Part shown: in pieces, positions 10,288 to 16,007 of the stretch | Layout: the number at the start of each line of letters is the position of its first letter | Numbering within the stretch: position 1 is the stretch's first letter | Source of the DNA: an uncultured Peptostreptococcaceae bacterium | GTDB taxonomy: Bacteria; Bacillota; Clostridia; Peptostreptococcales; Anaerovoracaceae | Assembly (NCBI GenBank): GCA_910588185.1 | Contig: CAJUQR010000004.1 | Span: forward strand, 146,248-210,247 | DNA length: 64,000 nucleotides | Direction of reading: 5' to 3' | Made by a program: the position numbers and the translations under genes | The notes under the pieces: generated by a model | The model's input: the letters and a program-made list of their open reading frames with translations, nothing else | What the model was told of the DNA's origin: nothing | Database searches by the model: none

Positions 10288-10332
10288 TGGCGAAAATTAG
10301 TCATCGACCATATGATGGCGAAAATTAGTCAT
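10288..10332 (+). promoter_or_regulatory. Two 17-bp direct repeats TGGCGAAAATTAGTCAT (28-bp period), candidate enhancer/UAS
   Basis: Exact copies at 10288-10304 and 10316-10332, about 105-150 bp upstream of the -24/-12 element. Confidence 0.4.
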
Positions 10333-10437
10333 GGATGATTTGAGTTTCTTCAGTAAACAACATAAATATTTTATAAAAAATTCACATAAACATTGAAATT
10401 TACAGTACGGTTTTTTTATAATAAATTATAAACACGT

Positions 10438-10452
10438 TGGCATATTTATTGC
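10438..10452 (+). promoter_or_regulatory. Sigma-54 (-24/-12) promoter TGGCAT-N5-TTGC
   Basis: TGGCATATTTATTGC with consensus GG/GC spacing, 42 nt upstream of the ATG at 10494. A sigma-54 activator is encoded in the same cluster. Confidence 0.7.
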
Positions 10453-10493
10453 TATTAATAATTACATGAAATAAGAATGCGAAAGGAGCAGCA

Positions 10494-11921
10494 ATGACAG
10501 TTATAGACAAAAGTGCAGAAGAATTCTATCCATCAATTTTTAATGATGTTTTGGCGCCTGCAACACAGGGACCTTCCAGTTCTAACACAGTAGGTGTTTA
10601 TCGTATTACATCTATTGCTAGGGCTATTTTGGATGGAGAGCCTATATCATTGCAGGTTGAAATGAGTACTAAAGGGGGATTTTATGATACATTCTTTGGT
10701 ATGGATAGTGACAAAGCTTGTCTAGCAGGTATTTTGGGTGAGGATTTGATTAAGTCCGACTTAGGTAAAATATACGATGTGGCTAAAGAAAGAGGATTAA
10801 AGTACGAGTTCTTCTTTACTGACAGAATAGAGAAAATACCTACAGAAATGGGTGAGTTTACTATAAAGTCAGAAAAAGAGACCATAGTACTTACAGGTAT
10901 AACCATGGGAGGAGGAGAAATCCTAATACGTGATATCAACGGTCAGCCGTGTGAAATTAAAGGAATGCATCCTGAGGAAATAATGATTAAAGGTTCTGAT
11001 AAACCTAGAACAGTTCCGTCGGTTTATCCGCTGCAAACCATAAAGGGAGCAGTTCCTCCGTTTACAACAAGTGTAGGAATGCTGGAGTATGCAAATAAAA
11101 ATAATAAACCTTTATGGCAGGTGGCACTGGATTATGAGTGCAGCTTGACAGGCCTTAGTCATGAAGAAGTTTGGAAAGTAGCCGAAGAGACTCTTGATAT
11201 TTCTTATGCTTCTATCGAATCAGGACATAAAGACGGAGTGAAATTCGATGGAATTACTGTAGCGAAGACTCCTGAGATGCGTGAAAAGATGAAAAACGTA
11301 AAGCTTATACCTACAGGCGCAGCAGATCAGGGTACCCTTGATGCTCTGGCAGTAATGGAATACAGTAATGCCCACGGAATAATTATTTGTATGCCTACAG
11401 GAGGAGCTTCGGGAATCATTCCTGCAACTATTAAGAATACTTCAAAGACTTTAGGAAAAACAAAAGAAGATGAAGTTAAAGCATTACTTGTATCGGGACT
11501 TATAGGAGTGTTCTATTTCCCTACTCATTACCATGGAGCGTTAGGATGTCAGGCAGAAGTGGGAATTGCCACATCCATGGTAGCTGCTGGTCTGGTTTCG
11601 TTCTTAGACGATGATCCTGATACAGCAGAAAGAGCGGCGGTTTTAGCAATGCAGTACATAATAGGACAGGTCTGTGACCCTGTTGCAGGATATCCTCAAA
11701 TTCCTTGTTTTATAAGAAATGTAGCATCTGTGCCTGTTGCTATGACATGCGCTAACTATGCTATATTGGGACTTGATACAGCAGTAACTTTAGACGGTAT
11801 GGTTCAGGCAACTTTGCGCGTAGGAGAGAAACTCAGAGCCGGAAGAATAAACGATTTGGGTACTTGTATGAATGAATACACTGCAAATCCGTGCAGTGCA
11901 TGCGGAAAATGTGCAAAATAA
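10494..11921 (+). CDS. L-serine dehydratase family protein (fused beta+alpha, 4Fe-4S type) with an extra C-terminal CxxCxxC
   Basis: N-terminal GPSSSNTVG motif. Cluster-ligand region GCQAEVG ... CDPVAGYPQIPC. The tail reads CSACGKCAK. Confidence 0.8.
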   Translation: MTVIDKSAEEFYPSIFNDVLAPATQGPSSSNTVGVYRITSIARAILDGEPISLQVEMSTKGGFYDTFFGMDSDKACLAGILGEDLIKSDLGKIYDVAKERGLKYEFFFTDRIEKIPTEMGEFTIKSEKETIVLTGITMGGGEILIRDINGQPCEIKGMHPEEIMIKGSDKPRTVPSVYPLQTIKGAVPPFTTSVGMLEYANKNNKPLWQVALDYECSLTGLSHEEVWKVAEETLDISYASIESGHKDGVKFDGITVAKTPEMREKMKNVKLIPTGAADQGTLDALAVMEYSNAHGIIICMPTGGASGIIPATIKNTSKTLGKTKEDEVKALLVSGLIGVFYFPTHYHGALGCQAEVGIATSMVAAGLVSFLDDDPDTAERAAVLAMQYIIGQVCDPVAGYPQIPCFIRNVASVPVAMTCANYAILGLDTAVTLDGMVQATLRVGEKLRAGRINDLGTCMNEYTANPCSACGKCAK

Positions 11922-11953
11922 ATTTAATTAATATATAAAGGAGACATTTAGAG

Positions 11954-12805
11954 ATGAGAAAGACAATTTTAGATTTTCAGAAAATGGTAGAAAACAAAGA
12001 GAAGATTACATTTTTAACAGCCTATGAGTATCTTACAGCAAAATATGAAGAGAGAGCTGGCATAGATATGATTCTTGTAGGAGATTCCCTCGGAATGGTT
12101 TGCCTTGGATATGATAAGACATTCCCTGTTACCATGGATGAAATGATTAGTCACAGCAAAGCTGTAAGAAGAGGAGCTCCGAATACTTATGTAGTAGGAG
12201 ATATGCCATATATGTCATATCAGATTTCTGATGAAGAAGCTATTAAAAATGCAGGACGCTTCATACAGGAAGCAGATTGTGACTGCGTGAAACTTGAAGT
12301 TGCAGGACCTGGAACTGTTAAGCGTATTAAGGCTATAGTAGATGCAGGAATCCCTGTAATGGGACACGTAGGTCTTACTCCTCAGTTTGCAGGAATGCTT
12401 GGCGGATACAAGGCACAGGGAAAGTCAGCAGCAGCAGCAGAAAAGATTTTGAATCTGGCAAAATCAGTAGAAGAAGCAGGCGCTTCAAGCATATTAGTTG
12501 AAGGAGTTCCTGCAATCGTAGGTAAACTGATAAAAGAAAACTTAAGCATTCCGGTACTTGGAATCGGAGCAGGTTCATATGTTGACGGACAGCTTCTGAT
12601 ATATGCAGATATGCTTGGATTCTATGATGACTTTACACCTAAGTTTGTAAAGAAATATGCAGAAATCGGAAAGCAGATGCAGGGTGCGTTTGAAGAGTAC
12701 GTTAAAGAAGTTCGTGAAGGCGTTTTCCCTGAAGATGGTGTTCATGCATATAAGATTTCTGATGAAGAAGCAGAAAAGATTAAGAAGGATTTCAATCTTA
12801 AATAA
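11954..12805 (+). CDS. panB: 3-methyl-2-oxobutanoate hydroxymethyltransferase (PanB) family enzyme
   Basis: VGDSLGMV...VTMDEM..H..AV.RG and VVGDMPYMSY match PanB. No panC/panD/panE is nearby, so the physiological substrate is uncertain. Confidence 0.75.
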   Translation: MRKTILDFQKMVENKEKITFLTAYEYLTAKYEERAGIDMILVGDSLGMVCLGYDKTFPVTMDEMISHSKAVRRGAPNTYVVGDMPYMSYQISDEEAIKNAGRFIQEADCDCVKLEVAGPGTVKRIKAIVDAGIPVMGHVGLTPQFAGMLGGYKAQGKSAAAAEKILNLAKSVEEAGASSILVEGVPAIVGKLIKENLSIPVLGIGAGSYVDGQLLIYADMLGFYDDFTPKFVKKYAEIGKQMQGAFEEYVKEVREGVFPEDGVHAYKISDEEAEKIKKDFNLK

Positions 12806-12837
12806 TGAATATATTAAGCAGTGAGGAATATTATTGT

Positions 12838-12866
12838 TTGACAACTTATCCCCTGTATCTTAAGAT
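12838..12866 (+). promoter_or_regulatory. Candidate sigma-A promoter for the activator gene
   Basis: TTGACA-N17-TAAGAT. Confidence 0.35.
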
Positions 12867-12884
12867 AATAGAGGGGGAGAGAAT

Positions 12885-14300
12885 ATGCTTAACATAGGAA
12901 GCCTGCTTATTGACAGCCTTGACTATATCATGATTGTCGATAAGGATTACAATATAATATACAATACAAGATATGATTTGACTTTAGGCGATGATTCGGC
13001 AGAATCTAAGAAGAATGAATATCTGTATAAAAACTTCTTTGAAGTGTATCCCAACATAAAAAAAGAAGAGAGCAATATTGTTCGGTGTATAGAGACGGGA
13101 GAGGTAATCATACGTAAGAATCAAAGGTATGAAGATTATCTCGGACAGATATATATTACAAACAATGTGACTCTTCCTTTAAAAAGAAAAGGCGAGCTGA
13201 TTGCTGCTGTTGAGATTACTCTCGACATGGACTTTAAGGAAAAAGATAAACAGCTTGCTGAAATAAGATTTGATGAATTTGTTAAACGCATTAAGGAAGC
13301 TTCCGGGCAGATAACTTTTGATACCATAATCACTGAAGATGCCGATATGAAGAGGAACATAGAGAAAGCTAAGGTTTTATCCACAATGCCTAATCCCACT
13401 CTTATATACGGAGAAACAGGTACAGGAAAAGAGGTTTTTGCTCAGGCAATGATTAATTACAGCGGCGTACCTAAAAATAATGTGGTTATCCAAAACTGTG
13501 CGGCAGTGCCGGAATCATTGATAGAGTCCATTTTATTTGGCACAGTCAAAGGTGCGTATACAGGAGCTGAAAATCACAAGGGCCTTTTTGAGGTGGCTGA
13601 CGGCGGTATAATATTTCTTGATGAGCTCAATTCAATTCCTTTCCATGTTCAGGCTAAACTTTTGCGCGTGCTTCAGGATGGCACGTTTAAACCCCTTGGA
13701 AGTAATGTTGACAAGAGGGTAAAAGTTAAAGTAATTGCGGCAATGAATGTGGATCCGATGGTTGCAATTGAAAAGAATATTATAAGGAAAGACTTGTTCT
13801 ATAGATTTTCCAGTGGATTGATAACACTGGCGCCGCTTAGGGAAAGGCAGGAAGATATAAGATTGTTTACACATTATTACATCAAGTATTTTTCTGATAT
13901 ATATGACAAGGATATTCTTGATATCAAAGAAAACTTGATGATCGCTTTTCTAAAATATAAATGGGAAGGCAATGTAAGAGAACTTATGAATACCATAGAG
14001 TTTATGGTTACATCAGCATCTGCAGGTGAGAATGTTCTTACAGCTGAAATGCTGCCGGTTTATCTTAAAGATAGGATAATACCCGAGATGCCATACTTGC
14101 AAAGGCCAAGAAACAAAGGCGTATATAATAACTTTGAATTTGAGCCCGGAGCATACCATAAGCTTATGGATGATTTTGAAAAAAATATGATTGAAGAAGC
14201 TCTCTGGCAATCAGGCGGAAACAAAAGTGAAGCAGCACGAATTTTGGGTATTCCGCGTCAAACTTTAAAGTATCGTATGAAGATACTTCAAATAAAATAA
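12885..14300 (+). CDS. Sigma-54-dependent transcriptional activator (PAS-like sensor + AAA+ + Fis-type HTH)
   Basis: Walker A GETGTGKE, a GAYTGA loop (GAFTGA variant), and C-terminal AARILGIPRQTLKYRMK. Confidence 0.85.
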   Translation: MLNIGSLLIDSLDYIMIVDKDYNIIYNTRYDLTLGDDSAESKKNEYLYKNFFEVYPNIKKEESNIVRCIETGEVIIRKNQRYEDYLGQIYITNNVTLPLKRKGELIAAVEITLDMDFKEKDKQLAEIRFDEFVKRIKEASGQITFDTIITEDADMKRNIEKAKVLSTMPNPTLIYGETGTGKEVFAQAMINYSGVPKNNVVIQNCAAVPESLIESILFGTVKGAYTGAENHKGLFEVADGGIIFLDELNSIPFHVQAKLLRVLQDGTFKPLGSNVDKRVKVKVIAAMNVDPMVAIEKNIIRKDLFYRFSSGLITLAPLRERQEDIRLFTHYYIKYFSDIYDKDILDIKENLMIAFLKYKWEGNVRELMNTIEFMVTSASAGENVLTAEMLPVYLKDRIIPEMPYLQRPRNKGVYNNFEFEPGAYHKLMDDFEKNMIEEALWQSGGNKSEAARILGIPRQTLKYRMKILQIK

Positions 14301-14343
14301 TAAAAATTTACTAGAAAATTAAAATCACAGGAGGTACTGATTT

Positions 14344-15471
14344 ATGAAAGTCGGAATCGTAAAAGAAATCAAAAATAACGAAAACAGAGTAGCTATTATT
14401 CCTTCTTCTGTTAAAGAGTTTATAAGAAATGGTCACGAAGTTCTTATTGAATGTGGCGCAGGTCTTGGAAGCGGATTTTCAGATGAAGAATACAAAGCAG
14501 CAGGAGCTACTATGGTAGAAAAAGCAGAGGATGTTTGGAATAATATAGATCTGCTTTATAAAGTAAAAGAAATTCTTCCTTCAGAATACAAGTATGTAAG
14601 AGAAGATTTGATAATCATGACATATCTGCATTCAAATGCACATAGAGATGAAACTCAGGTTCTTCTCGATGCAAAATGTACAAGTATTGCATTGGAAGAT
14701 ATCACTTCCGACAATCCTCACCGTAAATTCCCATTAGTTGCAAACATGGGTGAATTAGCAGGTAAGGGCGGTTTCTTGGCTGCTTGCTACTATGCACAGT
14801 CAGTTCACGGTGGTCCTGGACTTTTACTTAATAACGTATGTGGATCAGATTCTCCTATTATTTCAATCATCGGTTGCGGATATACAGGAATGGGAGCTGC
14901 TGAATTAGCATCTTCATTGGGCAACACAGTAAAGATGATGGATATAAATTATGAAGCAATGGAAAGAGCTAAGGGTCTGCTTCCTGGCAATGTTTCATTT
15001 ATGTATTCATCAAGAGGAGCTATTGAAGAATGTCTTAAGATGTCAGATGTTATTATTAACTGTGTTCTGTGGCCTAAGACAAGAAAAGATCATCTGATCA
15101 ACAGAGAAGACCTTAAGATGATGAAACCTGGCGCAATGATCATCGACGTAGCTTGCGATGACGGTGGTGCAGTTGAAACTTGCAGAAGCACAACTCACGA
15201 CGATCCTGTTTATTATGAAGAAGGAATTCTTCACTATGCAGTAGACAACATTCCTTCTGCATTCTCAAAGAGTGCATCCATAAGATTCTCCAACGACAGC
15301 TTACCATATGCTTTGGCAATTGCAAACAAGGGAGTTAAGCAGGCTCTCAAAGATGACAAGCATATAAGAGACGGATGGACTACTTATGACGGTCAGATGG
15401 TATTAAAAGAAACAGCTGAAAAATTTGAACTTCCTTGGGCAAACCCAGAAGAATTAGTTAAAGAGTGGTAA
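14344..15471 (+). CDS. Alanine dehydrogenase / PNT-family NAD(P)-dependent amino-acid dehydrogenase
   Basis: N-terminus KEIKNNENRVAIIPSSV and overall colinearity with Ald. Substrate is unknown. Confidence 0.8.
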   Translation: MKVGIVKEIKNNENRVAIIPSSVKEFIRNGHEVLIECGAGLGSGFSDEEYKAAGATMVEKAEDVWNNIDLLYKVKEILPSEYKYVREDLIIMTYLHSNAHRDETQVLLDAKCTSIALEDITSDNPHRKFPLVANMGELAGKGGFLAACYYAQSVHGGPGLLLNNVCGSDSPIISIIGCGYTGMGAAELASSLGNTVKMMDINYEAMERAKGLLPGNVSFMYSSRGAIEECLKMSDVIINCVLWPKTRKDHLINREDLKMMKPGAMIIDVACDDGGAVETCRSTTHDDPVYYEEGILHYAVDNIPSAFSKSASIRFSNDSLPYALAIANKGVKQALKDDKHIRDGWTTYDGQMVLKETAEKFELPWANPEELVKEW

Positions 15472-15490
15472 ATCCTGTTTAGCTATATAT

Positions 15491-15527
15491 CGCCTCACTT
15501 CAAAAGATGAAATGAGGCGTTTTTTTA
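15491..15527 (+). terminator. Rho-independent terminator
   Basis: Stem CGCCTCA/TGAGGCG followed by T7. Confidence 0.8.
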
Positions 15528-15606
15528 TGCTGTGTAATTGACGTAGCTTCAAAAAGTAGATAGAAAAGTAAGGTATAATATATTAACCGAAAGTGAATAT
15601 TTTACA

Positions 15607-15852
15607 CAAACCCCGAACAAAACGTAATTTTGAAGTAATTTGCAGGGTCAGACCCCGAAAAACACGTCCAAAACATCGACTTTGCAGGGCTATATTCTCT
15701 GTGATTTTTAAAAATGCGTGCCATATGAGACGTACGACAAGGAAAAAGGCAATTTTATCGAATTTCATACCCTGTAAACTTAACGAAAAATCAAAACTTT
15801 TCGGGGTTTAGCCCTGGGTAATGCCGCAAAAAAGATAATTATTCGGGGTTTT
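15607..15852 (+). repeat. Complex palindromic intergenic repeat, copy 1 (about 246 bp)
   Basis: Nested complementary modules: CAAACCCCGAA/TTCGGGGTTTG, CAGGG/CCCTG, ACCCCGAAAA/TTTTCGGGGT and TTTGCAGGG/CCCTGTAAA. Homologous to 50459-50710. Confidence 0.75.
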
Positions 15853-16007
15853 GATCAGACGCTTTGGGAAAAAATTCGTTATTAATACTACGCAATTAGC
15901 TAAAGATTAATTTTTAATTGCTTTTAGGCTCTAATTTTTGGATTACACATCAGTGTGCATCATATTGTCATAATCAGATTAGGCACATACGCAAAGCTTT
16001 ATAATGA

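Follow-up and report, generated by a model that had tools for sequence, protein, structure and literature searches.

A sigma-54 operon pairing serine-dehydratase-family and alanine-dehydrogenase-family enzymes carries a PanB paralogue from outside the pantothenate-operon clade

We analyzed a 64,000-nucleotide stretch of contig CAJUQR010000004.1 (the window) from an uncultured Peptostreptococcaceae bacterium, in which four co-directional genes form a sigma-54 operon of a known regulatory kind. The genes encode SdaL, a serine-dehydratase-family enzyme; PanB2, a paralogue of the ketopantoate hydroxymethyltransferase PanB; a sigma-54 enhancer-binding protein (EBP); and AlaDHL, an alanine-dehydrogenase-family enzyme. 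The core of SdaL and AlaDHL is conserved and undescribed and is variably decorated with the PanB paralogue. With a little less than even confidence, we favor an inducible serine/alanine operon at the pyruvate node, accompanied by an accessory folate-dependent hydroxymethyltransferase that would act on a 2-oxo acid.

The operon features are collected in Table 1. An initial annotation of the window had named the four genes and placed them under sigma-54 control; open reading frame listing and family scans recovered all four at its coordinates on the plus strand, and the regulatory call is borne out by a predicted promoter, 17-bp repeats, the domains of the EBP, and a genomic rpoN gene encoding sigma-54 (C2:111878). 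The gaps between the genes are 32-79 nt. The strict motif TGGCAY-N5-TTGCW matched once in the window, 41 nt 5' of SdaL, against a chance expectation of 0.17. In a whole-genome scan the exact 17-bp word occurred at positions 10288 and 10316 and at no other site; the two copies lie 105-150 bp upstream of the promoter, the right distance for the EBP, which may bind them. The hairpin 3' of AlaDHL has a folding energy of -14.5 kcal/mol (z -4.39, equaled by 0 of 200 shuffles) and was identified by folding, a simple terminator scan having missed it owing to its loop length. A candidate sigma-70 type promoter in the gap between PanB2 and EBP, just 5' of the EBP gene, may provide basal EBP expression.

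Table 1. Positions of the operon and its features in the window.
Feature	Position	Strand	Basis or content
Whole operon	10288-15526	+	direct repeats, -24/-12 promoter, SdaL, PanB2, EBP, AlaDHL, terminator
Putative upstream activating site, copy 1, TGGCGAAAATTAGTCAT	10288..10304	+	exact 17-bp direct repeat
Putative upstream activating site, copy 2	10316..10332	+	exact 17-bp direct repeat, 28-bp period
Sigma-54 (-24/-12) promoter, TGGCAT-ATTTA-TTGCT	10438..10453	+	strict consensus match
SdaL, 475 aa, fused beta-alpha 4Fe-4S serine-dehydratase-family enzyme, divergent subfamily	10494..11921	+	family profiles
PanB2, accessory ketopantoate-hydroxymethyltransferase paralogue, non-pantothenate clade	11954..12805	+	TIGR00222, tree
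Candidate internal sigma-70 type promoter, TTGACA-17-TAAGAT	12838..12866	+	consensus scan, 10/12 matches; pattern match alone
EBP, sigma-54 enhancer-binding protein with unclassified PAS/GAF-like sensor, AAA+ and HTH_8	12885..14300	+	family profiles
AlaDHL (AlaDHL2), alanine-dehydrogenase-family NAD(H) amino-acid dehydrogenase	14344..15471	+	both AlaDh_PNT domains
Intrinsic terminator, hairpin and U7	15491..15526	+	RNA folding

The EBP combines a Sigma54_activat domain (PF00158, 180 bits), an AAA lid, and HTH_8 (55.9 bits), and it carries a GAYTGA loop; an AAA+ domain with a loop of the GAFTGA type, an HTH domain, the promoter, and rpoN together place it in a sigma-54 operon. It had been described as a PAS-AAA+-HTH protein, of which the AAA+ and HTH parts held and the PAS label was not confirmed, the N-terminal 145 aa giving sub-threshold matches alone to PAS_4 (E 0.08) and GAF (E 0.027). 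The best NCBIfam match of the protein was PrdR, at 287 bits against a cut-off of 795.

Scanning species-representative genomes with an SdaL alignment yielded 79 loci. SdaL and AlaDHL occurred together in 15 of 21 related loci; AlaDHL lies downstream of SdaL in the same operon in 14 loci (L016-L019 and L021-L030), which represent 14 different species-level genomes; in L031 the order is reversed, with AlaDHL upstream. Only three species, represented by the window, L017, and L023, had all four genes, with PanB at the same position between SdaL and EBP. The four-gene set is therefore not co-conserved, and SdaL-AlaDHL is the conserved unit. PanB-EBP is scattered over the SdaL tree, where PanB-bearing L017 and PanB-less L030 are sisters (support 96/94); the SdaL of L030, which lacks PanB-EBP, is 91% identical to that of the window. 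Across loci with and without PanB, AlaDHL shares 86-91% identity with the window copy, which argues that it is not specialized for PanB. Given this equal similarity and the patchy occurrence on the SdaL tree, PanB-EBP is dispensable for the core.

A sigma-54 promoter usually accompanies the core, and an NhaC-family transporter gene often does. Sigma-54 promoters were found 5' of SdaL in L016, L017, L021, L022, L023, L030, and L032 and 5' of an NhaC-family gene in L019 and L027. An NhaC-family gene lies in the cluster in L019, L023, L027, and L031, and an upstream EBP in L026-L028 and L031. The L023 locus also has Fhs-FchA-FolD directly 5' of its SdaL-PanB-EBP-AlaDHL genes.

PanB2 was first recorded as a clear PanB homologue lacking pan neighbors, and this description stands. 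It scores 311.3 bits with the panB equivalog TIGR00222 (cut-off, 207.55), and its motifs GDSLG, GDMP, KLE, GHVGLTPQ, and VEGVP align with those of 1M3U and 1OY0, including the metal-binding and catalytic residues. No pan gene is adjacent to PanB2 according to family scans of the window genes. Nor is it the only panB of the genome: contig 6 holds a canonical operon with panG (DUF2520/PanG-like), panB1, panC, and panD in a row, and PanB1 is 53% identical to PanB2. PanB2 is thus neither linked to pan genes nor a sole copy, and the sequence data indicate that it is not the pantothenate enzyme of the genome. Many Clostridia proteins share 67-76% identity with it.

A sample of 56 PanB genes with their neighbors was drawn from the window, the related loci, and genomes of the same order. 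Maximum-likelihood analysis grouped the pan-operon PanBs in one clade (18 rows, support 100/99) and placed PanB2 in another (27 rows, support 100/96), which has zero panC- or panD-linked copies. Phylogenetic placement against canonical PanB, a check proposed in the initial annotation, hence puts PanB2 outside the pan-operon clade. At nineteen positions, several of them beside catalytic motifs, the pan-operon clade and the PanB2 subclade have different fixed residues; YDYS of the former is replaced by YEYL in the latter, RGAK by RGAP, TPQS by TPQF, GGFKV by GGYKA, LEC by VEG, and YQD by YAD. Two genomes that are 99-100% complete (G169 and G017) carry a paralogue-type PanB alone, and panC was not found in either.

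The neighborhoods differ as well. Fhs, FchA, FolD, or FocA lies within four genes at 12 of 35 non-canonical PanB loci versus 1 of 18 canonical loci, and an amino-acid dehydrogenase (GDH-like or AlaDH-like) or aminotransferase is present at 17 of 35 versus 1 of 18; because the loci are mutually related and were picked by PanB similarity, these counts are not independent and describe the sample rather than serve as a statistical test. Three arrangements recur. In L096, L116, and L126 (partly in L115), an IclR gene flanks a run of class I/II aminotransferase (in some), PanB, Fhs, FchA, FolD, and FocA, which joins PanB to a complete methylene-tetrahydrofolate-to-formate branch and a formate channel. 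Ten loci of the same order (L103, L106, L107, L109-L111, L113, L114, L118, and L121) have the arrangement [Fhs-FchA-FolD]-PanB-312-aa protein-GDH-like-IclR-x-DctP (TRAP), in which the GDH-like protein is an ELFV dehydrogenase of about 430 aa that scores below the GdhA cut-offs. The 312-aa protein has no Pfam or NCBIfam match, and its Atlas look-alikes are weakly U32-peptidase-like. Clusters with two different PanB paralogues each were seen in L098 and L100-L102, in the order TRAP transporter, LarA-like racemase, PanB, IlvD, and PanB.

The possibility that all PanB paralogue clusters are sugar-acid catabolic was considered and is weakened. The linked dehydratase of L100 passes the ilvD equivalog cut-off, and the neighbors in L098 are SerC ('class V aminotransferase') and a PRK06836-type aminotransferase; because of the ilvD match and the SerC neighbor, the contexts are not all clearly catabolic. 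We found no paper on a non-pantothenate PanB clade or on its link to one-carbon (C1) or amino-acid enzymes.

SdaL has an N-terminal SDH_beta-like domain (TIGR00719, residues 14-177) followed by SDH_alpha (PF03313, residues 203-449, 142.9 bits). The GPSSSNT motif and the GCQ, CDP, and PC cysteines pointed out in the initial annotation proved invariant across the SdaL family alignment (A1: GPSSSNT, GCQAE, CDP, and PC). In the alignment with Legionella L-serine dehydratase (4RQO), C352, C394, and C405, all invariant in A1, match the GCQ, CDP, and PC cysteines and are presumably the cluster ligands, as in that enzyme. The loop PTGGASGIIPA also aligns with 4RQO as PTGGA(S/A)GI. The CSACGKC tail is present, as had been reported, and is kept in close relatives alone; the invariant C-terminal feature is a G-T-C at residue 458. 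SdaL is the sole protein of the genome with an Sda-beta-type domain, and a profile search found no canonical sdaA in the genome, the one other SDH_alpha match being a 429-aa open frame on contig 3. The distribution of sda_alpha-type matches, present in only 18 of 61 genera of the taxonomic family, was uninformative on a replacement of canonical SdaA by SdaL in that family.

Some SdaL homologues stand in other settings. Those of L033, L034, L037, and L011 (Family XIII, Emergencia, and Hominibacterium; 44-48% identity) are beside a sigma-54 EBP and GrdE/GrdB-like reductase genes; L033 also has an adjacent SelD-like gene with AIR-synthase-related domains, and L034 has an equivalent 317-aa gene. 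A sister subclade (L015, L032, and L049) shows the order SdaL, 163-aa protein, Asp/Glu-racemase-like protein, and EBP, and the L015 cluster adjoins grdA, trxB, trx, grdC, and grdD. The 163-165-aa protein linked to SdaL or NhaC was considered as an enzyme and set aside; it has no Pfam match, is largely hydrophobic, and looks like a small membrane protein.

The assignment of AlaDHL to the alanine-dehydrogenase family was upheld by both AlaDh_PNT domains (N and C) and by the catalytic residues, with a TIGR00518 score of 352.7 bits that falls below the cut-off of 391.85. The protein scores about 292 bits against solved alanine dehydrogenases and conserves R15, K75, H96, E118, and D268, of which the Arg, Lys, His, and Asp residues are catalytic.

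Related units are found elsewhere in the genome. Contig 8 (about 55.5-58.3 kb; L009 7558-10318) carries SelA-SelB-LysR-EBP'-AlaDHL1-EamA, syntenic with L027. EBP' is 57% identical to the EBP over its full length, and the EBP'-AlaDHL1 unit lies behind a separate sigma-54 promoter, TGGCACATTTGTTGCT, together with a direct repeat, GCGGCGAATTTT(G/A)GCC x2, similar to those of the operon. An NhaC-family orthologue on the same contig (about 136-138 kb; L104 8024-10200), 76% identical to the NhaC of the L023 operon, lies behind a sigma-54-like element, TGGCATGTTTTATGCA (TGGCAT-N5-ATGCA), with A(A/T)ATT(T)AGTC-like words upstream, and adjoins a 165-aa hydrophobic protein. This genome has the ancestral-looking locus split, the NhaC gene being 80 kb from EBP'-AlaDHL1. 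A third AlaDH-like gene, 39% identical to the window AlaDHL, is directly 5' of panG-panB-panC-panD on contig 6 (L008 7334-11836), so that PanB is near an AlaDH-like gene at both genomic places. A perfect palindrome, TGACTAATATTAGTCA, at C2:24148-24165, about 125 bp 5' of folD, has ATTAGTCAT in common with the 17-bp repeat of the operon. Past the operon terminator, about 470 bp (15530-16000) have no open reading frame and contain repeated CCCCGAA / TTCGGGG words.

For C1 metabolism, GlyA, FolD, and an FchA-like gene are present, and Fhs (formate-tetrahydrofolate ligase) was not found by tblastn or hidden Markov model search in the 98% complete assembly. Methylene-tetrahydrofolate formed or consumed by PanB2 would consequently connect through GlyA to serine and hence to SdaL. 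Oxidation of the C1 unit to formate with ATP gain was discarded for this genome, Fhs not having been found; such an outlet fits L023 and the L096-type loci. A homoserine biosynthesis bypass (pyruvate plus a C1 unit to 4-hydroxy-2-oxobutanoate and then homoserine) was also discarded as unnecessary, because homoserine dehydrogenase (hom) and thrC are present.

In the serine/alanine reading that we favor, the PAS/GAF-like sensor of the EBP would respond to an amino-acid signal, and the protein would bind the 17-bp repeats and activate the -24/-12 promoter. SdaL would form pyruvate and ammonia by deaminating L-serine or a beta-hydroxy amino acid much like it. AlaDHL would interconvert L-alanine and pyruvate with NAD(H), either bringing alanine into pyruvate or draining pyruvate, ammonia, and NADH to alanine. 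The substrate probably enters through the NhaC-family transporter, which is encoded elsewhere in the genome behind a similar promoter. PanB2, a lineage-specific add-on, would move a hydroxymethyl group between 5,10-methylene-tetrahydrofolate and a 2-oxo acid; it may thereby tie the operon's 2-oxo acids to the pool of folate C1 units, from which GlyA would lead back to serine.

Several observations weigh against this reading. SdaL is far below every L-serine-dehydratase equivalog cut-off (127.9 bits against 345.1 for TIGR00720, SdaA, and 117 against 243 for the sda_alpha model), and it has GPSSSNT where 4RQO has GPSSSHT, the residue N31 being invariant in the subfamily; because of the low scores and this substitution, its substrate may not be serine. 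Distant SdaL relatives (41-61% identity) are beside Asp/Glu-racemase-like, GrdE/GrdB-like plus SelD, or 2-hydroxyacyl-CoA dehydratase genes, and the L023 and L032 loci, which differ in context, hold two SdaL paralogues of one metagenome-assembled genome. With neighbor genes so varied and two paralogues in one genome, the SdaL family probably spans several substrates. The genome also encodes three AlaDH-like paralogues (in the window and on contigs 6 and 8), none of which reaches the alaDH cut-off and all of which are about equally distant from solved alanine dehydrogenases. Finally, the role given to PanB2 is not a necessary consequence of a plain serine/alanine operon.

The best-placed alternative, which we consider unlikely, is breakdown by the operon of a gamma-hydroxy alpha-amino acid, for example homoserine or a compound of the pantonine type. 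AlaDHL would oxidize it to the 4-hydroxy-2-oxo acid, PanB2 in reverse with tetrahydrofolate would release a 2-oxo acid (pyruvate in the case of 4-hydroxy-2-oxobutanoate) and 5,10-methylene-tetrahydrofolate, GlyA with glycine would convert the latter to serine, and SdaL would produce a second pyruvate. This route would account for a PanB2 clade free of panC- and panD-linked copies, for the higher frequencies of C1 genes and of dehydrogenase or aminotransferase genes at non-canonical PanB loci, for the PanB-Fhs-FchA-FolD-FocA runs and the Fhs-FchA-FolD genes 5' of the L023 operon, and for the two near-complete genomes with the paralogue in which panC was not found. With GlyA present and Fhs not found, serine followed by SdaL would be a logical C1 outlet. 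In addition, PanB of P. putida partly replaced 4-hydroxy-2-oxobutanoate aldolase in vivo (bioRxiv 10.1101/2025.02.17.638773). The route is weakened by the dispensability of PanB: most SdaL-AlaDHL loci are without it, PanB-EBP is patchy among close relatives, and AlaDHL is as similar with PanB as without. PanB2 moreover keeps all canonical catalytic motifs and passes the panB cut-off, the ilvD-passing dehydratase in some paralogue clusters fits ordinary ketoisovalerate chemistry, and the neighborhood counts come from related loci chosen by PanB similarity and are not independent.

A role for PanB2 and the rest of its clade as folate-dependent hydroxymethyl-lyases of 4-hydroxy-2-oxo acids is similarly doubtful; one such reaction would turn 4-hydroxy-2-oxobutanoate and tetrahydrofolate into pyruvate and methylene-tetrahydrofolate, and AlaDHL, PanB2, and SdaL would then make up a single pathway. 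No paper pairing ketopantoate hydroxymethyltransferase with 4-hydroxy-2-oxobutanoate was found by those terms. The initial annotation had linked an amino acid, its 2-oxo acid, and a C1 unit through these genes. Its general idea gains from the second PanB in a separate clade, the C1 and dehydrogenase or aminotransferase neighbors, and the genomes in which panC was not found; the co-conserved four-gene pathway did not survive, and the pantonine or 4-hydroxy-2-oxo-acid route remains inferential.

Somewhat less probable than the gamma-hydroxy route is the use of serine as an electron sink, in which SdaL and then AlaDHL would convert serine to pyruvate and ammonia and on to alanine with NADH. This would be a Stickland-like reductive branch that re-oxidizes NADH and keeps the ammonia, with PanB2 unrelated to it. 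The SdaL and AlaDHL genes are adjacent and predicted to be co-transcribed, related organisms ferment amino acids and have numerous Grd-type reductase genes in the vicinity, and the nitrogen stoichiometry would be closed. Such a sink leaves PanB2 unexplained, and no published description of a serine-to-alanine route was found. Judged by sequence, AlaDHL may run in either direction, toward alanine oxidation or as a serine-to-alanine NADH sink.

We regard it as improbable that PanB2 is a redundant, horizontally acquired ketopantoate hydroxymethyltransferase with no pathway tie to its neighbors. Its passing of the panB cut-off with all catalytic motifs kept is what such an enzyme would show, PanB is readily lost, and the closest relatives outside the operon type (67-76% identity) include sequences assigned to Hominifimenecus and Oscillospiraceae. 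Against this, the slot between SdaL and EBP is kept in three species whose SdaL proteins differ by up to 26%, a full pan operon is already in the genome, and the clade is in non-pan contexts throughout.

The 2-(hydroxymethyl)glutarate dehydratase of nicotinate fermentation is an SDH-family member acting on a 2-substituted 3-hydroxy-carboxylate. That SdaL likewise dehydrates such an acid rather than an amino acid, the operon handling a hydroxymethyl acid that PanB2 forms or consumes, would suit its very low serine-dehydratase equivalog scores, the H-to-N change in GPSSSHT, and the varied family contexts, including 2-hydroxyacyl-CoA dehydratase genes, but it is very improbable, since most loci keep SdaL with an amino-acid dehydrogenase and lack PanB.

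Sigma-54 operons are a main switch for amino-acid fermentation in gut Clostridia, and the SdaL-AlaDHL-NhaC set adds an unlisted regulon from uncultured human, ruminant, and horse gut lineages. A sizeable PanB paralogue clade is separated from vitamin B5 synthesis and linked with the C1 enzymes of folate metabolism and with dehydrogenases or transaminases of amino acids; it merits biochemical attention, and a panB match in gut metagenomes should not be equated with pantothenate prototrophy every time. If members of this clade cleave or make 4-hydroxy-2-oxo acids with tetrahydrofolate, they would bring a new C-C lyase reaction to anaerobic catabolism and a natural counterpart of the engineered homoserine-cycle step. 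Anaerobes could then break down gamma-hydroxy amino acids and hydroxy acids without formaldehyde and harvest the C1 unit, as formate and ATP where Fhs is present and, in this genome, as pyruvate via GlyA and SdaL.

Among known systems, SdaL is closest in plan to Type 2 4Fe-4S L-serine dehydratase (E. coli SdaA; Legionella enzyme, PDB 4RQO). Both are single chains with the beta domain before the alpha domain, and both have the three aligned cluster cysteines, the PTGGA(S/A)GIIPA loop, and a conserved cysteine near the C-terminus. SdaL differs in its score against 4RQO of 100.9 bits, in GPSSSNT, and in the extra Cys-rich tail of its close relatives only. AlaDHL resembles L-alanine dehydrogenase (8HYE, 2VHW, and 1PJB) over the full length, in both domains, and in the five conserved residues named above; it is set apart from the solved enzymes by S97 and by two residues inserted after E118, and it is a below-cut-off protein and one of three paralogues in a 2-Mb genome. 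PanB2 matches ketopantoate hydroxymethyltransferase (E. coli 1M3U and M. tuberculosis 1OY0) in full above the equivalog cut-off with the motifs kept, and differs as a second copy outside any pan operon, in a separate clade with members in genomes where panC was not found.

Serine dehydratase is established in the anaerobic breakdown of amino acids, as is the connection of GlyA with methylene-tetrahydrofolate (PMC12674515). Amino-acid catabolic operons of Clostridia under sigma-54 and an EBP include PrdR-prd, OrdR-ord...nhaC, CdsR, and LeuR (Nie et al. 2019, PMC6615313). Searched by term, the paper gave no occurrence of 'serine', 'panB', or 'sdaA', and 'alanine' appeared there just as an end product of ornithine oxidation. 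The window operon departs from those regulons in its upstream activating site, which is a direct rather than an inverted repeat, and in the unclassified sensor domain of its EBP. It shares with them the -24/-12 promoter, repeats upstream of it, an EBP encoded within or next to the operon, enzymes that convert amino acids, and the presence of an NhaC-family transporter in the regulon.

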